From contig PUKZ01000191.1 in assembly GCA_003550725.1 (NCBI GenBank), forward strand, positions 18,636-82,635: a stretch of 64,000 bases of DNA. Reading direction: 5' to 3'. The DNA comes from Bacteroidales bacterium. Its GTDB lineage: Bacteria; Bacteroidota; Bacteroidia; Bacteroidales; UBA7960. Under the pieces are notes generated by a model. The model was given only the letters and a program-made list of their open reading frames with translations, had not been told where the DNA came from and made no database searches. Within the stretch, counting starts at the first letter, position 1, and each line of letters begins with the position of its first letter. The position numbers were made by a program, and so were the translations under genes. Shown piece after piece: positions 8,726 to 58,447 of the stretch.

Positions 8726-9739
8726 TTATGGTTTATATCTTGACTTAACCAGGATATTTTCAGCATCAGTTTTATGAATAAGTTCATTTAATTCTACATC
8801 ACTGTTTCTTCTCATGTATTCTCTTACAATTTGCCAGCCGATCCATACAGCTACCCTGGGTGGTGATTTTCTGGAAAAAGCTGCTGTGAAAGGGGCGTCT
8901 GTAATAAAATTATTTATTTTGCTTCTGTTAGATGAAAACAAAAGCTCATTGTTAAGAATATAGCTCCATACATGGCCCTGGTTATGCTTCATCCATTTTT
9001 CCTGCTTTGATGTGTAAGCAATTTTTATAGTGTCGTGAGTGTGTGGCATCATACAATCAAGAAAATAAAGCTTAATACCCTTATATATCATATGTTCAAT
9101 AAGGGTTTCAGGGTTGAAATTATTCTCAGTTTTATTCTTTGCTATGGTATAAATTACATCCCTGGTAATAAATTCAGGTGAGCGTTTCATAAGTTGATAT
9201 TTTGGTATCCCAATTTTGGTATATTTTTTAAAGTCTTCTCCAAGATAGGTGTCAAGTGCAATAGCAAGGTTTTGGCGGTTATATTTAATAGGATTAGATA
9301 TATCCAGGCCTGAGACATATGAGTATGTTTCGGGAATTTCATTTTCGGGGAAATGATAGCTGTAATAAGTGAAAGCTTCAGTAAGTTCTTCTTCGAGATT
9401 GTTCAAATCCGGGAAAATAATCATAGTTTCATTATAAAGATCTATTATTGCCGGATCAGTTATGTAATCGTATAACTGTCTTTTAGCCAACGGATTGTCA
9501 ATTTCATCACCAAGGAAGAATTTATATTTTTCTATATATGGGTCTAATTCTTGTCGCAACTTAAAAGGATTGATATTAAAAAGCACTTTTTCAAACCTGT
9601 TAATTTGCAACGGCTCAATCTCAATATCAGAAACATCTGCCTCATAAGGCAACTTTCTTAATGATTTAGTATAAATAACAACAAACACTATTGCCGATAT
9701 TAATAATAAACCAATTAATATGTATGTTTTTCTTTTCAT
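8726..9739 (-). CDS. gldB: Gliding-motility protein GldB-like (DUF2268-type fold)
   Basis: 337 aa with an N-terminal membrane anchor. The C-terminal pattern FITDAPFTAAFSRKSPPRVAVWIGWQIVREYMRRNSDVELNELIHKTDAENILVKSRYKP matches my recollection of Flavobacterium GldB (...SPGRVG-WIGWQIV-SYM-NN-VSL..LL...A..IF..S-YKP). Confidence 0.65.
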   Translation of the reverse strand: MKRKTYILIGLLLISAIVFVVIYTKSLRKLPYEADVSDIEIEPLQINRFEKVLFNINPFKLRQELDPYIEKYKFFLGDEIDNPLAKRQLYDYITDPAIIDLYNETMIIFPDLNNLEEELTEAFTYYSYHFPENEIPETYSYVSGLDISNPIKYNRQNLAIALDTYLGEDFKKYTKIGIPKYQLMKRSPEFITRDVIYTIAKNKTENNFNPETLIEHMIYKGIKLYFLDCMMPHTHDTIKIAYTSKQEKWMKHNQGHVWSYILNNELLFSSNRSKINNFITDAPFTAAFSRKSPPRVAVWIGWQIVREYMRRNSDVELNELIHKTDAENILVKSRYKP

Positions 9740-9750
9740 CTGAATAAGTT

Positions 9751-9940
9751 GTGGTTATTAAGCTGTTTTACAATGATTTACATTTTTATGTTTAGATATT
9801 TAATTTTTTAGTGACGGGTAATTCCGAAAAAACCGGGATTTTGTTGCCACTAAAAGAGTAACTGACCTGACCCGTCCTAAATTTTACCTGTCACACCCGT
9901 CACTCGTTACCCGTTACCATTATGTGCTACCGCTAAGTTC
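9751..9940 (+). repeat. Intergenic repeat element, copy A (leader block + GTGACGGGTAA box + A-loop hairpin + GTYACYC heptamer run)
   Basis: The leader block is 9751-9807. The GTGACGGGTAA box is at 9811-9821. The hairpin is AATTCCG/aaaaaac/CGGGATT at 9820-9840. Heptamers gtcactc gttaccc gttacca occupy 9899-9919 and TACCGCTA is at 9928-9935. A 10-bp perfect long-range complement pairs 9810-9819 (agtgacgggt) with 9895-9904 (acccgtcact). Confidence 0.7.
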
Positions 9941-10079
9941 ATACTCTTTTGTTCACCTTTGCCGGATAAAGGCTTCATATAAGTATAACTCTTTTATTAA
10001 CACATGTCTAACGTAAAAATTTATTGTAAATATATTATAAAAGCATTTTTTCTTATACTTTTTTTGGCAAAATTTTTTC

Positions 10080-10937
10080 TTATAATTTTTTAAGACAGAT
10101 ATCCAGGCTATGCCTCCAATATGGAATATTTACCATAAAATCATTTTTGATTTTATGTTTGCACAATAAAGAAAAAGAGGGGCGTTTGGCAATAGTCGGG
10201 AATTCTTCACTTCTTACCGGCTCAATATTACATGATAGTCCTTTAATATCAGATATAGCTACTGCAATATCGTACCAGCTGGCAACTCCCTCATTGGAGT
10301 AGTTGTAAATCCCGGTATTTTTGAAAGTTTTAATTGCTTCGGGCAATATTTTAAGAGTTGTATATGCCAAATCGGATGAAAATGTCGGTGAGCCTATTTG
10401 ATCATAAACGACTCTTAAATGCTTTTTTTCACTGCCTTTTAAAAGAATGGTTTTTACAAAATTATTTCCATATGCGGAGTATAGCCATGCCGTTCTTATT
10501 ATTAAACCTCGTGCGGCATTAGCAATAATTTGTTTTTCGCCTTTAAGTTTACTTATTCCATAAACGGTTTGAGGATTTGCAGGGTCATTTTCGGAATAAG
10601 GTTGGTTTTTATTGCCATCAAAAACATAATCGGTGGAGAAATGCACAAGAAAAGTATCTGTTTTTGCTGCTGCTAAAGCCAGGTTACCTGCCCCGTCAGA
10701 GTTGGTTTTTAATGCTTTTTCAGTATCATTTTCTGCTTGATCAACATTAGTATATGAAGCGCAATTAATTATACAATCAAACCTGTTGTTTTTTAGAGCA
10801 CTTTCAACAACTTCATAATTAGAAATGTCAAATTTATTGCGATCGACAAATGTGAATTTTTTGTCATTATGCAAATCGGATAAGTCTTTAAATTGACTTC
10901 CCAACTGCCCGTTACAACCGGTAACTAATATATTCAT
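10080..10937 (-). CDS. rfbD: dTDP-4-dehydrorhamnose reductase
   Basis: 285 aa with the Rossmann motif VTGCNGQLG and catalytic YGISKLKGE (YxxxK). Length and pattern are typical of RmlD. Confidence 0.85.
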   Translation of the reverse strand: MNILVTGCNGQLGSQFKDLSDLHNDKKFTFVDRNKFDISNYEVVESALKNNRFDCIINCASYTNVDQAENDTEKALKTNSDGAGNLALAAAKTDTFLVHFSTDYVFDGNKNQPYSENDPANPQTVYGISKLKGEKQIIANAARGLIIRTAWLYSAYGNNFVKTILLKGSEKKHLRVVYDQIGSPTFSSDLAYTTLKILPEAIKTFKNTGIYNYSNEGVASWYDIAVAISDIKGLSCNIEPVRSEEFPTIAKRPSFSLLCKHKIKNDFMVNIPYWRHSLDICLKKL

Positions 10938-10994
10938 AGCTATTTTAAAGTTTTAATTTTGCCGATTTTTAAAATATTAACCTTCATTCTATAT

Positions 10995-11002
10995 CAAAAT
11001 TA
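10995..11002 (-). promoter_or_regulatory. Candidate -7 promoter box TAATTTTG
   Basis: The plus-strand caaaatta is TAATTTTG on the minus strand. It lies 58 nt upstream of the rfbD ATG. Confidence 0.3.
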
Positions 11003-11145
11003 TTTGAACATAGGCAGTTATTTAAACTTTTGTATATCATCTTTTTATTATGTTATTGATTATAATATTTTAAATGGATATTTCAGGATATTCTTAAAAT
11101 TAAAAAGAAAGTAACTGATATAAAATTCTTATCATAAGGTTGTTT

Positions 11146-12084
11146 TTAAATAATTTTCCTGAAGTATTTTATGGTTTCTTTAAGCCCATCATCCAGATCA
11201 ACTGAAGGTTTCCAATTAATAATATTTTCAGCTTTTGTTATATCTGGTTTACGTTGCATTGGATCATCTTCCCTGAGAGGTTCAAAAATAATCTTTGAGC
11301 TGGAGCCGGTTAGGCTTAATATTTTTTCTGCAATTTCCAAAATAGAATATTCGACAATATTTCCTATGTTAACCGGCCCGGTGATGTTATCCGGTGTATC
11401 CATAAACCTTGTAATCCCCTCAATCATATCATCAACGTAGCAAAAACTTCGTGATTGCTTGCCGTCACCGAAAATTGTAATATCTTCATTTTTAATTGCC
11501 TGAACAATGAAATTGCTGATAACCCTGCCATCATTATAATCCATCCTGGGGCCATAAGTGTTGAAAATCCTGAGAATTTTTATTCTCACATTATTTTGTT
11601 TGTGATAATTATAAAACAGGGCCTCGGCACATCTTTTACCTTCATCATAGCATGCACGTTCGCCAATCGGGTTAACATTACCCCAATAACTTTCCGTTTG
11701 AGGATGCTCTTCAGGGTCGCCATAAACTTCACTTGTTGAGGCCTGAAGAATTTTTGCTTTTATACGTTTTGCCAATCCAAGCATATTTACAGAGCCCATG
11801 ACTGAGGTCTTAATGGTTTTTATTCCATTATATTGATAATAAATAGGAGATGCCGGGCATGCCAGGTTGTATATTTCGTCTGCTTCAATATAAAAAGGCA
11901 TGGTAATATCATGCCGTATCATTTCAAACCATGGATTGTCAAGTAAGTGCAATATATTCTCTTTATGACCGGTAAAAAAGTTATCAAGGCAATATACTTC
12001 ATTACCCCTGTCCAGAAGTTTTTCGCATAAGTGGGAACCCAAAAAACCGGCCCCACCCGTAACAAGAATTCTTCTTTTTTTCAT
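11146..12084 (-). CDS. UDP-glucuronate decarboxylase (UDP-xylose synthase, SDR family)
   Basis: 312 aa with [20 protein letters not shown] and catalytic [10 protein letters not shown] (YxxxK). The [23 protein letters not shown] segment is typical of UXS. Confidence 0.88.
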
Positions 12085-12094
12085 CTTTATAAAA

Positions 12095-12275
12095 TGTGTT
12101 TAAAGTTCAGATATTTAAATTTTTAGTGACGGGTAATCTCGGAAAACCTGGATTTTATTGCCGATCAAGGGGTGACAGGTAGCTTTTAATTTACTCATCA
12201 AATCAACATATCATCAATTGTATCGTGCCTTACTTAATTCATCTGTTCTCGTTACCCGCATACCGCTACAAGTAA
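12095..12275 (+). repeat. Intergenic repeat element, copy B
   Basis: The 5' module is aaatgtgtttaaagttcagatatttaaatttttaGTGACGGGTAAT. The hairpin is AATCTCGG/aaaa/CCTGGATT at 12135-12154. TTGCCGATCAAGGGGTGACAGGTAGC follows. The heptamer run is 12245-12264 (gttctc gttaccc gcatacc) and TACCGCTA is at 12261-12268. Confidence 0.7.
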
Positions 12276-12442
12276 TACTTTTTTTATAAAAATTACCAAG
12301 ACAAATTTATTTAAAATTCGGGATGATTATTAATTTTTTGCTTAATAATAAAAACAAATATCTTTATATTTGGTTTTAGATTTGTTATGCTAAGTCGAAA
12401 TTACTAAGATTTATATTTATTTCATTGCATAATATGCATATA

Positions 12443-12555
12443 ATGTTCAGGTATTTATTTTTTAGTAACGGGCAATCCCGAAAAACGGGATTTCGCTGCC
12501 GCTCAAAGGGTGACGGGTAACGCTTATTCTACTCAACAAATAAATTAAATTGAAA
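12443..12555 (+). repeat. Intergenic repeat element, copy C (5' half only, abutting the next gene)
   Basis: The 5' module is atgttcaggtatttattttttaGTAACGGGCAAT. A perfect hairpin AATCCCG/aaaaa/CGGGATT is at 12474-12492. CTGCCGCTCAAAGGGTGACGGGTAAC occupies 12496-12520. The sequence ACTCAACAAATAAATT that follows resembles copy B. Confidence 0.7.
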
Positions 12556-12572
12556 ATATTAAGTTTAAGCTC

Positions 12573-13970
12573 ATGGAAACTGTTGACACTAGCCGTAAGG
12601 CTTTATTAATTAATCTTGAGGAATCCATATATGGTTCGTTTGCTGAAATAGGTGGTGGACAGGAAGTATCGCGTCATTTTTTTATTTCGGGCGGCAGTTC
12701 GGGCACGGTAGCTAAAACTATTTCTGCCTATGATATGGTTTTTAGTGATACTTTGTACGGTAAGCGGTCGGACAAACGGTATGTTTCTGAATCCAGGCTT
12801 CTGCAGATGATGGATTTTGAATATAACAATTTGATAAACGTTTTGGGAGATATTCGTGATAATAATACCCGTTTTTTTTCATTTTGCAATACGGTTTCAA
12901 CTCTAAACTACAAAAAGGATAATGAGGCCCATGGGTGGCTGGGTGTGAGGTTTCAGTTAAGCCCTGGAGGAGAGCCTAATGATGTTGTACTTCATACCCG
13001 GTTGCTTGAAAACGACAGTCAATTGCAGCAAAACACTTTAGGAGTATTGGGTGTAAATCTTATTTATGCTTGTTTTTTTAATTATAATCATCCTAACATC
13101 TTTTTAAAATCATTGACAGAAAATATCTCTAAAGACCGTATTGAAATAGATATGATCAGTATGAGGGGGCCGGAACTGGACTATGTCGATAATCGATTGT
13201 TGGCAGTACAGTTGGTTAAAAATGAAATGACCAGTGCTTCTATATTTAATCGCCACGGAAATGTCATGCAGCCAAATGATTTGCTTTATAAACAGAATAT
13301 TATGTTATTGCGAGGCAGTTTCAGGCCAATTACTTATGTGGGCTTTGACATGCTAAAAACCGGTTTTTCTCTGTTTAAAAAAGATGTCGGCTTCAAAAAA
13401 GAAAAGACAGTTGTTTTATGCGAAATGACAATGAATAACCTTATGAGCACCGGTGAATTTGATGAAAGAGATTTTCTTGACCGCGTGGATATATTGTGTG
13501 GTATGGGGCAAAATGTTATGGTATCTAATTTCCGTGAATTTTACAAACTTACAGTTTGGTTAAAACGGTTCAAGCTTGAAAATATTAGAATGGTCATAGG
13601 GGCTTTGACTTTTAAAAATGTTATTGATGAAAAATATTATCAGCACTTACGAGGGGGAATTATGGAGGCCTTAGGTAAATTATTTATTGATAATTTAAGG
13701 GTGTATATTTATCCCGGCAAAGAAAAAAATGATAATGAAATAATCACCGTCGAAAATATGCCCTTGTCTGATAATATAAAGCATTTATATAAATACATTC
13801 TTGATAACGGTTTTATTGTCAATATTGATAATTTTCGTAAAGAAGTATTGCCATACTTTTCGCACATAGTTTTGGAAAAAATAAAGAATAATGATCCCGA
13901 GTGGGAGACTATGGTGCCTAAGTTTGTATCGGCATTTATTAAAAACAAAAAACTGTTTGGGTATAATTAG
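12573..13970 (+). CDS. Conserved uncharacterised cytoplasmic protein (465 aa)
   Basis: A long clean ORF with no signal peptide or TM helix. It has a Gly-rich N-terminal segment, YGSFAEIGGGQEVSRHFFISGGSSGTVAKTISAYDMVFSD. I cannot assign a function. Confidence 0.7.
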   Translation: METVDTSRKALLINLEESIYGSFAEIGGGQEVSRHFFISGGSSGTVAKTISAYDMVFSDTLYGKRSDKRYVSESRLLQMMDFEYNNLINVLGDIRDNNTRFFSFCNTVSTLNYKKDNEAHGWLGVRFQLSPGGEPNDVVLHTRLLENDSQLQQNTLGVLGVNLIYACFFNYNHPNIFLKSLTENISKDRIEIDMISMRGPELDYVDNRLLAVQLVKNEMTSASIFNRHGNVMQPNDLLYKQNIMLLRGSFRPITYVGFDMLKTGFSLFKKDVGFKKEKTVVLCEMTMNNLMSTGEFDERDFLDRVDILCGMGQNVMVSNFREFYKLTVWLKRFKLENIRMVIGALTFKNVIDEKYYQHLRGGIMEALGKLFIDNLRVYIYPGKEKNDNEIITVENMPLSDNIKHLYKYILDNGFIVNIDNFRKEVLPYFSHIVLEKIKNNDPEWETMVPKFVSAFIKNKKLFGYN

Positions 13971-14034
13971 AATAAAATATACCTGTGTAATTGACAATGG
14001 TTTTTTTAGTTTGCTTTTCAGGTATTAAAGCATA

Positions 14035-16560
14035 TTAAAATTCATCAAAATCATCCATGGTATCCATTTCATCTCTATCGGGCCGATCCCTGTCTCTGGT
14101 GAAATCGTGTATACGGTATGTGAAGCCAAGGAAGATCATACGGCTTCTTCTTTTACGTTCCCAGGTCATTTCAAAATTATTTCCTTCCGTATACATATTA
14201 AACTTTTGTGTATTAAATATATCACTTACACGAAGTGTAATGCTTCCATTGTTATCAAGTATATTGTATCGCATTCCCATATCAGCTGAATACATTGCCT
14301 TTCTTTCACCCTGTAGCATTACTACCGGCGACCTGTAATTGCCGGATAGTTGCATTGAAAAGTTATTACCTATTCTGAAGTTATTATTTATTCTGGCTGT
14401 CCATGAATAGCTTTCACTATCATATACATTTTCTTCTGTTCTTCCTTCAACAATTCTGTGGAAGTAGCTAAAGTTACCATTAACGCGCCACCAATCAGCA
14501 ATTGTTTGAGATGCAATTAACTCAAGGCCATAGTTTGTGCTTGTTCCGATGTTTTCCCATGAAGTAGTTGTCACACCTTCATTATCCATAGTACGATAGC
14601 GTGATATCATCTGGTCGGTATATCTATAAAAAACCGATGGATTAAGGGTGGTGTAATCCCAGTATTTTGTATAGCCTAATTCAATTGAATGAATGTATTC
14701 GGGCAATAAGTTGGGATTTCCTTTTCTAAGATTATACGGGTCGGAGTATCTTGTAAAAGGATTGAGTGCCCATCTTCTTGGTCGGTTGATTCTTTTACTG
14801 TAGCCTAACTGAACTTCCTGGTCGTTTTCAAAGCTTCTGCGCAGATGGGCACTGGGAAACAAACTAAAATATTCGTTATCAACATCACCATCTGTCATTT
14901 CCAGCTGTTCTCCTTTAATAAATGCTTGTTCAGCTCTTAACCCCCCTTCTATGTTATAATTACCCAGGGTGGTGGAATATATACCGTATGCCGAATATCT
15001 TTGTTCATCAAAGAGGAAACGATCGGTACGGTTTGGGTCTATAATAAAATCATTTTCATTATGATCAAATTTATAAAAACGCATATCATTATCGCTGCTC
15101 CTGTATCTAAATTGCCCGCCGGCTTCAAATTTGCTGTTCTCATTTAACGGGTGGGTATAATCAATTTCTGCCCTATAATTATTGTTTATTGATTCATTAT
15201 CAACTAATTCACGATTATCAAAATTAGTTTGATTATCGTAATCCAGGAAAGACTTATTATCTTCTTCTCTCAGAAAATCACTATCCGAATATCTAAGGTC
15301 GATATTTAACTTACGGTATTTTTCATCAAAATCTCTTTCATAGTTGAGAGAGTAGTCAAACCCATCGCGAGCCATTAAATTATCTGCTGTTCTGAATTCG
15401 GGCTGCTCTTCGGGATAATTGATAAACTCGTAATATGTTTCACTGAAATTATCTCTTGCCCAGTTGCTGTACCTGGTACTAAAAGTAATAGTGTTTTTAT
15501 CATTGATATTATAATCAACTCCAAATTGAAAGTTATATGTGTCCATGCTTCTATCAAAGTCCATATCCTGGTTCAGTTCCGATTCATGCCTTTGCCCGTT
15601 TTCATTTTCAAACCAGCTAACTCTTTCGGACTTGCCCCATCCGTCCATATTGAAGAATCGCCCGCTTGCATTTCCGAAAAAATTTATTTTCTTGCCCGGC
15701 CTTACATTAAAGTTAATTGAGCCGCTATACCTGTTATTATTACCGGCACTAATATTAACCATACCGTTATATCCGGGTCTTTCTTCTTTTTTGGTTACAA
15801 TATTAATGATGCCTGCTGTTCCGTCGGGATCGTATCTTACCGAGGGGTTGGTAATAACTTCTATACGATCAATCATTTCGGCAGGAAGTTGCTCAAGCAC
15901 GGCATCATCATCCAAACCGGTCAGTGTTGAAGGGCGGCCGTCAACAAGTATTGTAACATTTTCACTACCCCTTAAACTAATATTTCCGTCAAAATCAACA
16001 TTAACTGAAGGGATATTTTCCATTAGCTCAAGTGCAGTACCTCCTGCAGCCGTCAGCTCCTGCCCGACATTTATCACTCTTCTGTCAAGGCCGGTTTCCA
16101 TCATTTCCCTTGTGGATTCTATTACCACTTCCGAGAGATATTCGGCACTTGGACTGATCTTAATAGTCCCGGCATCGTATACTGGCTCCTCACGGGTTAT
16201 TTTTATTCCGTTATACTTTTGAGTTGGATAACCTACAAATTGTAATTGAAGATAATATTGACCGGGTGGAACATTTTCAACCATAAATCCGCCTTCCTCA
16301 TCAGAAACAGATCCACTAACCATTACAGAATCGCTCTCACGATACAAAACCACACTGGCATACATTAAAGGCTCTCCGGTCGTATCATCTATTAATTCTC
16401 CTTTTACAGTACCGATTCCGCCACGCGAACCTTCACCTCTCTCCCCGCGCTGAGATCCGGGAGGTTGTTCGGAAAACAATTCAGGTGTAAATAATATAAA
16501 TACAAATAATAGAATAACACTATTTAATATTAGCCGCGTCTTCAAAATCCAATTATGCAT
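14035..16560 (-). CDS. TonB-dependent-receptor-like outer-membrane beta-barrel protein with CarboxypepD_reg-like N-domain
   Basis: 841 aa with a signal peptide. It has a carboxypeptidase-regulatory-like domain (TVKGELIDDTTGEPLMYASVVLY...VENVPPGQYYLQLQFVGY) and a plug-like region (NVTILVDGRP...IEVITNPS). A long beta-barrel is rich in aromatic/Gly strand ends. Confidence 0.85.
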   Translation of the reverse strand: MHNWILKTRLILNSVILLFVFILFTPELFSEQPPGSQRGERGEGSRGGIGTVKGELIDDTTGEPLMYASVVLYRESDSVMVSGSVSDEEGGFMVENVPPGQYYLQLQFVGYPTQKYNGIKITREEPVYDAGTIKISPSAEYLSEVVIESTREMMETGLDRRVINVGQELTAAGGTALELMENIPSVNVDFDGNISLRGSENVTILVDGRPSTLTGLDDDAVLEQLPAEMIDRIEVITNPSVRYDPDGTAGIINIVTKKEERPGYNGMVNISAGNNNRYSGSINFNVRPGKKINFFGNASGRFFNMDGWGKSERVSWFENENGQRHESELNQDMDFDRSMDTYNFQFGVDYNINDKNTITFSTRYSNWARDNFSETYYEFINYPEEQPEFRTADNLMARDGFDYSLNYERDFDEKYRKLNIDLRYSDSDFLREEDNKSFLDYDNQTNFDNRELVDNESINNNYRAEIDYTHPLNENSKFEAGGQFRYRSSDNDMRFYKFDHNENDFIIDPNRTDRFLFDEQRYSAYGIYSTTLGNYNIEGGLRAEQAFIKGEQLEMTDGDVDNEYFSLFPSAHLRRSFENDQEVQLGYSKRINRPRRWALNPFTRYSDPYNLRKGNPNLLPEYIHSIELGYTKYWDYTTLNPSVFYRYTDQMISRYRTMDNEGVTTTSWENIGTSTNYGLELIASQTIADWWRVNGNFSYFHRIVEGRTEENVYDSESYSWTARINNNFRIGNNFSMQLSGNYRSPVVMLQGERKAMYSADMGMRYNILDNNGSITLRVSDIFNTQKFNMYTEGNNFEMTWERKRRSRMIFLGFTYRIHDFTRDRDRPDRDEMDTMDDFDEF

Positions 16561-16571
16561 ATTTTTAAATT

Positions 16572-16628
16572 ATAGTTATTAAACTGTTTTGCAATGATTT
16601 ACGTCTTAATGTTTATATATTTCAATTA
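16572..16628 (+). repeat. Repeat element copy D, leader block
   Basis: 46 of 57 positions are identical, without gaps, to 9751-9807 by my hand alignment. Both blocks start about 11 nt from the ATG of the flanking minus-strand gene. Confidence 0.7.
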
Positions 16629-16789
16629 CCTTTAATTCTGCACTTGCTGAAAAACTCTATTGGTATATATATAATCTTTTTTAAACCTTTCACTAATGAG
16701 GGTTTTATCTCAATAAGTTATACTAACAAGTTGGCTTATAATTATTTGCAATTTAAGGTTGTAATTTTTTATTATTTCTAATTATCGGC

Positions 16790-16915
16790 GACACACATAA
16801 TTCACTCGTGACGAATCAACGAATTAACTAATCAATAATTGTATCGCATATTACTTTATTCACTTGTTACCTATCACTAATATTACCCGGTAATGAAATC
16901 GCTAACGTTAAGTTT
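16790..16915 (+). repeat. Repeat element copy D, degenerate 3' half
   Basis: The sequence GGCGACACACATAATTCACTCGTGACGAATCAAC...ATCAATAATTGTATCGCATATTACTTTATTCACTTGTTACCT...AATCGCTAACGTTAAGT is collinear with copy B at 12170-12272. Confidence 0.55.
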
Positions 16916-17152
16916 ATTATCTTTTCTGAACATCTTGCTGATGAGGATCTCATTATATATCATTTCAAAACAAGCATTTGTTCCATATGATTAAAACCTT
17001 ATTTTTTTTAGTTTATTCATAAGACAATTATTATTGCAAAAAGTTTAATATATGAAAAGTTTTTTCAAAATATTTTAAGTGTAAAAATTTTTCATATCTG
17101 AATTTCAAAATTTCAATTTACTATAACAGCTCAAAGTGCCGGTCAAAGTGAA

Positions 17153-17173
17153 GCTGCAACTCAAAGGGTAGAT
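17153..17173 (+). repeat. Short degenerate fragment of the same repeat family (copy E)
   Basis: gctgcaactcaaagggtagat compares with copy C gctgccgctcaaagggtgacg (12495-12515). Confidence 0.3.
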
Positions 17174-17491
17174 ATTGTGGTTTAGTGAATACCTTTTAAT
17201 TATTTATACGAAAAAAAACATAGCTGACCGTAGCGAACATTTGCAAACTGATTAAGTAAAAGATATATTATTTTTTTTATTTATAATTTTTTAAGAATTT
17301 CAGGCAACATTTAAAAGCTGTTATAGATCATTTCAGGCTTATTAATCATTAATAATTTTCAACATTTGAGTTTTTTGTTACCTGGAATATTTGGCATAAG
17401 CCTGTTTATTAGTTTTTTATAAAAATAATTTGGTGTGATTAATTGTTAATAACGATATTGAGCTGACAGGCCAATTATTTTTACTTTGTTA

Positions 17492-17499
17492 TATATTTG
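17492..17499 (+). promoter_or_regulatory. -7 promoter box TATATTTG upstream of parE
   Basis: Exact TAnnTTTG match, ending 28 nt before the ATG at 17528. Confidence 0.45.
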
Positions 17500-17527
17500 C
17501 ACCTTAAACAGATAAGGGAGTGTAGTT

Positions 17528-19369
17528 ATGGCTGAAACGGCGATATATTCTGAAGATAGTATTCGCACATTAGACTGGAAGGAGCATATTCGGGTCAGGC
17601 CCGGGATGTATGTCGGCAAATTAGGTGACGGTGCATCGCCTGATGATGGTATTTATGTTCTTCTTAAGGAGATTATTGATAATTCCATAGATGAATTTGT
17701 TATGGGGTTTGGCAAGACTATTGAGGTTAAGGTTAAAGATAAGACTGTAACTGTAAGGGATTACGGACGCGGCATACCTTTGGGGAAAGTTGTCGATTGC
17801 GTATCAAAAATAAATACAGGTGCTAAATATGACAGTAAGATATTCAAAAAAACTGTAGGATTAAATGGAATTGGCACAAAGGCTGTTAATGCATTATCTT
17901 CTGATTTTTCAATCAAATCAATCCGTGAGGGAAAGTCTAAAGATGCAATATTTAAAAATGGCAGTCTTATAAACGAATCGCAATATGAAGATACTTCATA
18001 CCGTAAAGGTACAATAGTAACATTTATGCCCGATGAAAATATTTTTGGTAATTATCGTTTTGTAGATGAGTTTGTTGAGCGTTTGCTATGGAATTATGTA
18101 TTTCTTAATCGCGGTTTGACTATTTTATATAACGGGCAGCGACTTTATTCTGAGAACGGCATTAGTGATCTTCTTAAAAAAAACATTGATGCTCCCACCA
18201 TTTATCCTGTAGTTCATATTGTTGAAGACGATTTGGAGGTTGCATTTACTCATAGTGCTACTCAATACAGCGAACAGTTTTTTTCGTTTGTTAACGGTCA
18301 GCATACTGTTCAGGGCGGTACACATCAAGCTGCATTCAGAGAGTCATTTGTAAAAACTATCAGGGATTTTTATAAAAAAGATTTTGATGCCAATGATATC
18401 AAGACTTCTTTGATTGTTGCATTAAGTATTAAGGTGCAGGAACCTGTTTTTGAATCTCAAACCAAAACCAAGCTGGGGTCGCAGCATATAGAGCCGGGAG
18501 GAACAACCATACGCAATTATGTAGGTGAAATTTTAAAAAAGAGGCTGGATAATTACTTGCATATAAACCCCGATGTTGCTGATGCATTGCTGAAGAAAAT
18601 CCTTCAGTCGGAAAAAGAAAGAAAAGAGCTTGCCAACATCAAGAAAACAGCCAAAGAAAGAGTTAAAAAAGCAAATATTCATAATAAAAAGCTTCGTGAT
18701 TGCAAAGTTCATTATAATGACAATCATTCCAAAAGACTTGAATCTACACTTTTTATAACCGAGGGTGATTCGGCAAGCGGGTCAATCACCAAAGCCCGCG
18801 ATGTAAATACCCAGGCTGTTTTTACTTTGAAAGGGAAACCTCTTAACTGTTATGGTTTATCAAAAAAAGTAGTTTATGAGAATGAAGAATTTAACCTTTT
18901 ACAGGCAGCTCTTAATATTGAAGACAGTTTGGAAAACCTGCGCTACAACAACGTGGTAATTGCAACTGATGCTGATGTTGACGGAATGCATATCAGGTTG
19001 TTGCTGATAACATTCTTTTTGCAGTTTTTTCCTGACCTGGTACGCAACGGACACCTTTATATTTTACAAACACCATTGTACAGGGTTCGTAATAAGAAGA
19101 AAACTATTTATTGCTATAATGAAAATGAAAGAATAAATAGTTTGAATGAGCTTGGTGAAAACGCCGAAATAACCAGGTTTAAAGGCCTGGGTGAGATATC
19201 TCCCGATGAATTCGGCCGGTTTATAGGCAAGAACATTCGGTTAGATCCTGTTATAATGAGAAAAGAAAATGGTATTAGTGAAATGTTAAAGTTTTATATG
19301 GGTAAAAATACTCCCGACCGGCAAAACTTTATAATTGACAATCTCAAATTTGACCTTGATATGGTATAA
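17528..19369 (+). CDS. parE: DNA topoisomerase IV subunit B (type IIA topoisomerase B subunit)
   Basis: 613 aa with GHKL motifs [16 protein letters not shown] and GLNGIGTKA. Toprim motifs are [11 protein letters not shown] and [12 protein letters not shown]. The short length and the N-terminus [29 protein letters not shown] fit Bacteroidota ParE better than GyrB. Confidence 0.8.
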
Positions 19370-41496: not shown

Positions 41497-41624
41497 TAGC
41501 TTATCAATAAATAAAGCTTTTTAATAAATCAATTTTTGTAAATCATACTATCGAGATATAATATTTATTATCTTTGTAATGGACTTAAATTTACATAATT
41601 ACGGGTTTATAGCAGGCGGTGCTG

Positions 41625-52844: not shown

Positions 52845-53430
52845 TGGTTAAATAATTTATATACAAAACTTTTTTGTAAAATAAAGGGTTAAATGTTAAC
52901 TATTCGTTATAGTTGATTATGTTATATAAGTGATTTTTGTTTTTGTTCAAAGTTAATTAAAACATCGAAATTATAACAAATAATTAATTTAATTAATCAA
53001 AAATCAATTAAATATTATTTAAGCAAATATTTAAGCCAGGTATATTTTTTATGTTTATATAATATAACAAAATTTATAAAAAACAGGTATTTTAAAGAAC
53101 ATTTGCCGAAAAACGTAAATAAAAACCCTGCAAAATTTACAAAGAATAAGTTTCTGGGTATTGCAAAAGTAAAGATGGTAATTTTTTCCGGGCTAATTAT
53201 TAAGGCTCTAAACTATGAAATTATTTTTTAATATTTGTTATTGTTGTTATTGTTGTTACTGTTATTAAAGGAAAACAAACAATTTTAGTAATTTTAATCG
53301 GATACTATTGAAATCTACTAACAAAACAATAAAAGTTTTGTATTTTTATAAAATTGAATTATTATTGTTTTTAACAATTAAAAACAATTTCAGAGGCAGC
53401 TGATATTAAAAACTCAAAAAGCTTAGAGAT

Positions 53431-57651: not shown

Positions 57652-58275
57652 ATGCAAAACAAACTTCAGGAATTAACAGATAAACTATACCAGGAAGGTG
57701 TAGATAAAGCTAATGAAGAAGCTAAAAAGATTGTTAATGATGCTAAAAAAGAAGCCGATGAAATAGTATCAAAAGCAAGGGATAAAGCGGATAAAATATT
57801 GAAAGATGCAGAAAAGAATGCAGAGGAAATTAAGAAGAATTCACTAAACGAATTACAGTTAGCTTCCAAGCAAGCTATTTCTGACCTGAAACAGCGTATA
57901 ATAAACCTCATAGAAACGAAGGCCTTAAAACCTTCTACAAAAGAGGCTTTTGAAGATAAAGAGTTTACTAAAGATATTATATTAACTATTGTTAATAACT
58001 GGGATCCACAAAAAGAATCACAGGTTGAATTGAAAATTGTACTTCCAGAAAAAAAGCAGAAAGAATTTGAAAACTTTTTTAAATCAAAAGCTAAAAGCCT
58101 GCTTGATAAAGGTGTTGAAATTGAATTTTCCGAAAGTGTTAAAGGAGGTTTCAGAATTGGGCCAAAAGATGGCAGCTATTTAATATCTTTTACTGATAAA
58201 GACTTTGAAAACTTCTTTAAAACTTTTTTAAGGCCTCGCCTTGTTGAAATGCTTTATGGTAAAGGTGACAAGTAA
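57652..58275 (+). CDS. atpE: V-type ATP synthase subunit E
   Basis: 207 aa with a long N-terminal charged helix (KLYQEGVDKANEEAKKIVNDAKKEADEIV...) and a C-terminal globular part. It is the first gene of the V-ATPase operon. Confidence 0.82.
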   Translation: MQNKLQELTDKLYQEGVDKANEEAKKIVNDAKKEADEIVSKARDKADKILKDAEKNAEEIKKNSLNELQLASKQAISDLKQRIINLIETKALKPSTKEAFEDKEFTKDIILTIVNNWDPQKESQVELKIVLPEKKQKEFENFFKSKAKSLLDKGVEIEFSESVKGGFRIGPKDGSYLISFTDKDFENFFKTFLRPRLVEMLYGKGDK

Positions 58276-58447
58276 AGAGTAAACGGGTTTATGTGTTAAA
58301 TAAACTCGTTACACTTAATTAGTTATCCGTTATAAATAAGTATTATTATTTAAAAACGGAGAGGATAGAGAAGATATAAATATTAAACTATAAAATATAA
58401 AAGCTATGAGCGAACGGGTCAATTGTTACCCGTTACTCGTTACTCAT
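58276..58447 (+). repeat. Repeat-family element, copy F, inside the V-ATPase operon
   Basis: gagtaaacggg (58277-58287) is complementary, with a 1-nt bulge, to cccgttactc (58429-58438). A local hairpin pairs aacgggt (58413-58419) with acccgtt (58428-58434). The heptamer run gttaccc gttactc gttactc (58425-58445) is like copy A at 9899-9919. Confidence 0.55.

Follow-up and report, generated by a model that had tools for sequence, protein, structure and literature searches.

GTTACYC heptamer arrays and a probably species-restricted, decaying intergenic repeat in an uncultured Bacteroidales bacterium

What are the related non-coding sequences that recur in the intergenic spacers of an uncultured Bacteroidales bacterium from hypersaline soda-lake sediment? 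The window analysed here is a stretch of 64 kb from contig PUKZ01000191.1 (positions 18,636 to 82,635). Its initial annotation described at least six co-oriented copies of one unclassified family within the 64 kb, combining a conserved box (module 1), a hairpin with an all-A loop, a further motif (module 3) and a run of heptamers. We give an even chance to the explanation that these are lineage-specific composite non-coding intergenic repeats built from the heptamer GTTACYC, with slippage, local copying and REP-like stem-loops in mRNA as the processes behind them. As far as sequence comparison can tell, the heptamer arrays have the structural hallmarks of a known class of heptanucleotide tandem repeats, with a different unit, and a species-specific core would remain unexplained by that class. 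The element that carries the core is probably a species-restricted, decaying intergenic repeat.

We first asked how many copies there are. The core, consisting of the box GTRACGGGYAA, the A-loop hairpin and TGCC..AARGRGTRAC, was found by an ungapped repeat search and a profile hidden Markov model in three copies only: A (9786-9875), B (12101-12190) and C (12441-12530), with a mean column identity of 84%. Module 1, the three A-loop hairpins (9820-9840, 12135-12154 and 12474-12492) and module 3 (TGCCrmTmAArGrGTrAC) are all present in A, B and C where they had been placed, the spacer similarity between B and a further copy, D, holds, and the element is indeed non-coding. The figure of at least six copies was an overcount, as D has the flanks only, E is a fragment and F has the heptamers only. 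When 74.5 kb (the window together with 10.5 kb of flanking sequence from other assemblies) was compared with itself by BLAST, the pairs A-B and A-D alone were returned. The core-related copies are clustered within 7.5 kb instead of being spread through the window, and none was found in a further ~67 kb of this genome; the profile and self-BLAST searches gave no core beyond A-C. The uniform co-oriented family likewise comes down to about four related copies in the same orientation (two-sided p ~0.125, not significant).

Copies A-D are about 60-85% alike overall and are mosaics of common modules with internal deletions (Table 1). The best-conserved stretch is the AT-rich block with box1, which is 97% identical between A and B over 29 nt. 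In copy D, the 62-nt 5' block is 82% identical to that of A, the 3' spacer, the heptamers (16859-16879) and the end modules are shared with B, and the box/hairpin core is replaced or degenerate. Copy C, which lacks inverted heptamers, still has the core, part of the spacer and the end block on the 3' side. The closing stem predicted by the initial annotation exists as perfect inverted repeats of 10 bp in A (9810-9819/9895-9904) and 7 bp in B; since C has no inverted partner, it is not a property of the family. Fragment E is a marginal member, whose piece at 17153-17173 resembles module 3 over 18 nt. The core is missing from F, and the heptamers are the sole module that it shares with the others. 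Every core-related copy lies 6-25 nt from a start codon.

The motif that unifies these sequences is the heptamer GTTACYC (complement GRGTAAC), which occurs in direct and inverted arrays; box1 and box2 each consist of two GRGTAAC units in the inverted orientation. Its frequency was compared with chance expectation. The box TTTTTAGTRACGGGYAAT gave 3 exact matches (0.43 expected even with up to 3 mismatches), and the heptamer pair GTYACYCGTYAC gave 8 matches vs. 0.47 expected. In-phase GTNAC runs of three or more units were detected at 2 loci, compared with 0.06 in shuffled sequences. A tolerant scan detected heptamer arrays at 4 sites (9886-9919, 16859-16879, 58418-58445 and, inverted, 58263-58283) vs. 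0.4 in shuffles. The annotated runs at 9899-9919 and 58425-58445 are real; that of copy B (12245-12264) is degenerate. All of the arrays are intergenic, and those of A, B and D are not start-proximal.

To place the arrays among relatives we compared the spacer between the genes for V-ATPase subunit E and DUF2764 (a V-ATPase subunit) with those of L149 (92% protein identity), L150 (80%) and L151/L152 (80%). The called DUF2764 start at 58406 gives a protein of 294 aa; since homologues are 275-278 aa in length and the match to the Pfam profile sets in at residue 24, the true start is 58454. The heptamer array contains no in-frame stop codon, which is why 16 extra codons were included in the called gene. 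The direct array of F ends 8 nt 5' of the corrected start, and start-proximal arrays in L149 and L151 lie at 8-9 nt. L149 has the same arrangement as F, with six units vs. three. In L151/L152, four inverted and five direct units form a long hairpin right after the E stop codon, and three additional direct units lie 9 nt 5' of the start codon. No arrays were found at this spacer in L150. The hairpin after the E stop codon was estimated at -20.1 kcal/mol (z -4.1) in the window and -38.3 kcal/mol (z -4.6) in L151. The arrays thus stay in place across species while the surrounding sequence turns over, they change length in 7-nt steps, and they are older than copies A-D.

The sites of A-D have a different history. 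Gene order at these sites is conserved in L119 (78% identity, 465-aa protein), L120 (73%), L128 (82%) and L153-155 (85%, decarboxylase), and neither the core nor a heptamer array was found at the A-D sites of these relatives. The gldB-rmlD spacer is 340 nt long in the window and 84 and 69 nt in relatives; the spacer between the outer-membrane protein (OMP) gene and parE measures 967 nt vs. 465 and 390 nt, and the divergent spacer between the decarboxylase gene and the gene for the 465-aa protein 488 nt vs. ~200 nt. We concluded that A-D are lineage-specific insertions, located in transcribed spacers and 5' leaders of adjoining envelope genes and absent from relatives at 73-85% protein identity, because the orthologous spacers of the relatives are without them. 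In the divergent spacer, B lies between the minus-strand -7 box and the decarboxylase start, and C between the plus-strand -7 box and the start of the 465-aa gene. Because they stand between conserved promoter boxes and start codons, B and C would be insertions into 5' leaders; judged by these promoter motifs, the transcript of B would be the complement of the plus form and that of C the plus form itself. The upstream spacer of the decarboxylase gene seems to be insertion-prone, as in L153, the 85%-identity relative, an insertion sequence (IS) with a DDE_Tnp_1_4 transposase gene (L153 440-1753), directly upstream of the decarboxylase gene, occupies the spacer that holds B and C.

Next, we examined folding and transcription signals. 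Of the ideas put forward in the initial annotation, a REP-like stem-loop in mRNA fits best, with z-scores of -4.1 for F and -4.6 for L151 and a weaker value for A (minus strand, -2.2). A small structured RNA fits poorly: cores and whole elements reached only -0.6 to -1.6 on the plus strand, and a consensus fold of A, B and C had a double-sided change in 1 of 15 pairs, from three sequences only. The lack of an Rfam match was borne out, with zero matches in the window at gathering score and, at E<=10 in 9600-17600, none that overlaps any copy. No canonical Bacteroidota -7 box (TAnnTTTG) was found 5' of any core; a near-consensus TAnnTTTT is present in the AT-rich block, 5-6 nt before box1. Scans for sigma-70 promoters and terminators returned nothing at the cores. 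We rejected an intrinsic terminator, for which the stem is not strong enough and the run of T residues not long enough, and a canonical promoter in front of the cores, which would need TAnnTTTG. We also set aside, by our own reasoning, an integron attC site, a retron, CRISPR, JUMPstart/ops and an ECF promoter, whose motifs, partner genes or spacing do not fit. The statement that the element is not a classical miniature inverted-repeat transposable element (MITE) or IS end was likewise upheld. No boundary inverted repeats were found, as the homology among copies continues for ~65 nt upstream of box1 and for ~40 nt downstream of the heptamers; the hexamer TAAGTT at the two outer ends is a direct repeat and not an inverted one; and the flanks of A (ctgaa / cggat) and D (atttt / tgatg), with boundaries placed only to within a few nt, show no target-site duplication.

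Tandem heptamers are said to have been described by Mazel in 1990 as the cyanobacterial STRR heptamers, and Mrazek reportedly treated 'long simple sequence repeats' in 2007. Intergenic direct repeats of the heptamer TAACTGA occur in Beggiatoaceae, Cyanobacteria and five Bacteroidetes, mostly a few nt 5' of start codons; there are 7-nt indels between strains, the spacers of close relatives are shorter and repeat-free, and contigs break in the arrays (MacGregor, 2015, PMC4679880). Their function is unknown, and binding of an S1, Csp or CsrA-like protein with a post-transcriptional role was proposed (PMC4679880). A preprint on Nostoc reports an effect of contiguous heptamer repeats on the expression of recF and recO, at the level of transcription or translation (bioRxiv 10.1101/2022.06.06.494920). 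The repeats of the window resemble the TAACTGA and STRR repeats in being intergenic tandem 7-nt units, 2-6 per set and above chance, in their forward arrays a few nt upstream of a start (F, L149, L151), in a length change by 7-nt steps between relatives (three units in the window vs. six in L149), in the shorter, repeat-free spacers of relatives and in a contig break at an array. They differ from TAACTGA in the unit, GTTACYC, with only TAAC in common and in one register, and from both TAACTGA and STRR in that the units also form inverted, hairpin-forming arrays and are part of a longer composite whose conserved core of 60-90 nt is unique. An exact TAACTGA occurs once in copy A (9858-9864, inside GAGTAACTGACCTGACC), possibly by coincidence.

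Two further classes were compared. REPs are palindromes of 20-40 nt that carry an unpaired GTAG or CGTC tag right at one end, and CGTC-tagged REPs have the arrangement CGTC-stem-loop-stem-CCA (Di Nocera et al., 2013, PMC3733652). Like REP/BIME sequences, the repeats of the window are short extragenic hairpins in transcribed spacers, with A/T pairs at the stem base and loops of 4-7 nt; larger structures can form between oppositely oriented units, mRNA stabilisation has been proposed, and no nearby transposase is needed. Unlike REPs, the hairpin here is AATYYCG/loop/CGGGATT, has neither a GTAG tag nor a CCA tail, and has a stem of 7 bp vs. 8-9 bp; the plus-strand GACG-GGY-stem corresponds to stem-RCC-CGTC on the other strand, which is mirrored and has a 3-nt gap. 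Copy number seems low, at three hairpins in 76 kb, and the scanned open reading frames (ORFs) of the window include no RAYT gene. Other modular intergenic repeats are pneumococcal BOX (boxA-boxB(n)-boxC), enterobacterial ERIC and the Correia elements of Neisseria; Correia elements are bounded by terminal inverted repeats of 26 bp and by TA duplications, and BOX and ERIC are dispersed, with tens to hundreds of copies. In common with these, the repeats of the window are composite, with conserved end modules, variable internal short units and internal deletions, and they are lineage-restricted, located in transcribed intergenic regions and able to fold. They have no sequence similarity to any of the three, lack the terminal inverted repeats and TA duplications of Correia elements and, unlike BOX and ERIC, are visible as a local cluster only.

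The explanation that we prefer may work as follows. Arrays would lengthen and shorten by replication slippage in 7-nt steps, and the composite would be copied locally through recombination or an unspecified trans-acting activity, with no classical transposase. Facing inverted arrays would fold into putative REP-like stem-loops in mRNA, which could shield the upstream message or uncouple adjacent cistrons, for example V-ATPase E from the cistrons downstream. In these bacteria, which are poor in Shine-Dalgarno sequences, direct arrays a few nt 5' of a start codon may have an influence on how translation is initiated. For copies B, C and D, decay and near-neutrality are probable. Should the arrays act on expression, Bacteroidota would have a second, independent example of heptamer repeats before start codons, and the three vs. 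six units at one site in sister species, together with the conserved hairpin after the V-ATPase E gene, offer a natural comparison that can be tested with reporters. In practice, the arrays cause miscalled gene starts, as in DUF2764, and assembly breaks.

Several points weigh against this explanation. The unique core (AT-rich block, box1 and A-loop hairpin), 84% conserved, is unexplained by heptamer slippage, and no variation in array length was seen among the five assemblies of this population. The folds of B, C and the core by itself are no more stable than those of shuffled sequences. The hairpins of A and B carry C-to-U wobble substitutions that preserve pairing on the plus strand alone; as the plus strand is antisense to the neighbouring mRNAs, this misfits a simple stem-loop in mRNA for these copies, although the events are few and mutational bias is possible. 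The tight cluster of A-E beside envelope genes could mean a local function and not neutral spread, and the copy number and orientation figures hold for the ~76 kb of this genome alone.

A protein-binding platform is an unlikely alternative: the heptamers, as RNA or DNA, would be iterated sites, and the insertions would wire gldB, the decarboxylase, 465-aa and OMP genes and the V-ATPase operon into one regulon. This would account for iterated short units next to start codons (8 nt in F, 8-9 nt in L149 and L151), for the 6-25 nt between every core-related copy and a start codon, for the clustering beside envelope genes and for an array position conserved across species despite turnover of the surrounding sequence; the same proposal, with S1, Csp or CsrA as candidates, has been made for the TAACTGA repeats (PMC4679880). 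The orientation of the units with respect to the neighbouring gene is inconsistent, however: F is forward, the arrays of A, B and D are reverse and distant from the start, and the boxes of C are reverse. On double-stranded DNA, a period of 7 bp is ill-suited to binding along one face; in relatives the same genes are regulated although the elements are absent, and no candidate binding protein was found. A bolder version, which we rate as improbable, would have the GTTACYC arrays bound by a dedicated protein, specific for RNA or single strands, through which translation initiation or mRNA decay is set in Shine-Dalgarno-poor Bacteroidota; the unit number (three vs. six, in 7-nt steps) would be an evolvable gain control and the A/B/C core the vehicle to envelope and gliding genes.

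The cluster could also have arisen by local hopping of a non-autonomous mobile element (a MITE or an IS200/IS605-type PATE) with a transposase in trans, which we consider quite unlikely. The insertions are lineage-specific, ~110-380 nt long, with shared end blocks, internal deletions, a subterminal hairpin and internal inverted repeats; the orthologous sites are empty; the heptamer array of A (9886) is the exact point at which a JGI contig (L135) breaks off, as happens at multi-copy repeats; and the same decarboxylase upstream region holds the IS (DDE_Tnp_1_4) in the 85% relative. The outer boundaries do not suit a MITE, since homology passes the inverted repeats, the ends are direct and no duplication is visible. 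In addition, no transposase was found in the window or its flanks, the copies are only ~60-85% alike, no copy was found in the other ~67 kb searched, plasmid and phage collections gave no match, and the matches listed in the public contig scans were due to chance, with the metagenome collection being incomplete. Small RNA genes transcribed on the plus strand from the AT-rich block, whose products would be antisense to the gldB and decarboxylase 5' leaders or act as a leader element of the 465-aa gene, are improbable in our estimate. Such genes would agree with the conservation of the AT-rich block and box1 (A-B 97%, 29 nt), with TAnnTTTT 5-6 nt before box1 and with hairpin changes in A and B that keep pairing on the plus strand only, but no core is preceded by TAnnTTTG or followed by a terminator-like site, fold z-scores are only -0.6 to -1.6, Rfam gave no match, covariation from three sequences is uninformative and none of the relatives examined has the cores. 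Invertible promoters are a well-known feature of Bacteroidales, and the perfect inverted repeats of 10 bp (A) and 7 bp (B) could be read as recombinase sites, with box1 and the inverted heptamers flanking a switchable promoter in a phase-variable segment. We regard this as highly improbable: the enclosed stretch of 75-115 nt has no -7 box inside, C has no inverted partner, no recombinase gene lies nearby, and five independent assemblies show one orientation and no gaps, although assemblies report the majority state only.

The features of the repeat copies and of their surroundings are listed in Table 1.

Table 1. Modules of the repeat copies, promoter motifs and neighbouring genes (window coordinates)
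Feature	Position	Strand	Remark
Copy A	9745..9962	+	between gldB start codon (9739, minus) and rmlD stop
Copy A, 5' block	9745-9806	+	common to D
Copy A, module 1/box1	9790-9822	+	
Copy A, A-loop hairpin	9820-9840	+	
Copy A, module 3	9845-9862	+	
Copy A, heptamer array	9886-9919	+	
Copy A, 3' block GCTACCGCTAAGTT..		+	common to D, B, C
Copy B	12095..12285	+	longest complete copy; between decarboxylase start codon (12084, minus) and the conserved -7 box of the decarboxylase gene
Copy B, module 1/box1	12105-12137	+	
Copy B, degenerate hairpin	12135-12154	+	
Copy B, module 3 + box2	12160-12182	+	followed by spacer common to D
Copy B, degenerate heptamer run	12245-12264	+	followed by TACCGCTAC
Divergent promoter block	12296..12376		outside the repeat; conserved in all relatives
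-7 box TAnnTTTG, TAAATTTG	12302-12309	minus	
-7 box TAnnTTTG, TATATTTG	12365-12372	plus	
Copy C	12441..12567	+	internally shortened; ends 6 nt 5' of start codon of 465-aa gene (12573, plus)
Copy C, module 1/box1	12443-12476	+	
Copy C, perfect hairpin	12474-12492	+	
Copy C, module 3 + box2 GTGACGGGTAAC	12497-12521	+	followed by short spacer and 3' block ..TTAAGTTTAAGCTC
Copy D	16566..16946	+	abuts OMP_b-brl_3 start codon (16560, minus)
Fragment E	17120..17173	+	2-3 TCAAAG-containing look-alikes of module 3 (..GTGCCGGTCAAAGTG.., CTGCAACTCAAAGGGTAG); read directly
F, 5' part	58263..58326	+	degenerate inverted heptamer arrays; hairpin directly after V-ATPase E stop codon
F, 3' part	58412..58445	+	one inverted unit AACGGGT, then three direct units GTTACCC GTTACTC GTTACTC
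gldB	8726-9739	minus	
rmlD	10080-10937	minus	
UDP-glucuronate-decarboxylase-like gene	11146-12084	minus	
Gene for conserved 465-aa protein	12573-13970	plus	no Pfam domain
OMP_b-brl_3 barrel gene	14035-16560	minus	
parE	17528-19369	plus	

Genes identical to those of the window are present in the NCBI metagenome-assembled genome (MAG) GCA_003553765.1, in the JGI metagenomes 3300027784 and 3300000557 and in the Logan assemblies SRR490150 and SRR490134; these five assemblies match the window at 99.96-100% identity without gaps, and strain polymorphism was dropped as an idea on this ground. The contig L135 ends at window position 9886, exactly where the heptamer array of copy A begins, and such a break is of the kind expected if like arrays occur elsewhere in the genome or metagenome.

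Wider searches were made in public collections. A scan of public genome contigs with TTTTAGTRACGGGYAAT gave at least 118 single matches in unrelated phyla, all of them chance on inspection. A scan of metagenome contigs with a 22-base gapped pattern gave 3 chance matches; because not even the organism's own JGI contigs were recovered, this collection is incomplete for the purpose. All 13 matches in viral contigs were due to chance, blastn against plasmid and phage collections returned zero matches, no tRNA or tmRNA was found by a dedicated search, and a literature search for the heptamer string returned Blastocystis PCR primers only.

The genes around A-D are housekeeping envelope genes. No transposase, recombinase or Y1 transposase was found among the scanned ORFs of the window, and no transposase in the flanks either. 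The 465-aa protein (12573-13970) is very broadly conserved in Bacteroidales, with >7,800 homologues at E<=0.001, some of which carry 'TonB-dependent receptor' in their record names; its gene is always positioned between the decarboxylase and OMP_b-brl_3 genes.

A few other repeats are present in or near the searched sequences. ACGGGT sites at 41601 and 41650 lie within small coding genes and have no relation to the repeat family, and a TTGTTA-type simple repeat, TTGTTATTGTTGTTATTGTTGTTACTGTTAT, at 53235-53265 (spacer 52845-53430) has no relation to the heptamers. Among the chance matches, Vulcanimicrobiota MAG contigs contain several (GTCACGC/GTTACGC)n arrays per 8 kb (L041 4128, 5075; L096 3052, 3666, 5245, 5680; L118 1317), and Nostoc and other cyanobacterial loci have ATTACTC and GGTCATT arrays. 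A 61-nt palindrome, 85% self-complementary, is located at L124 13278-13338, ~1.9 kb past the window end and 3' of the last V-ATPase gene, and is probably the terminator of the V-ATPase operon.

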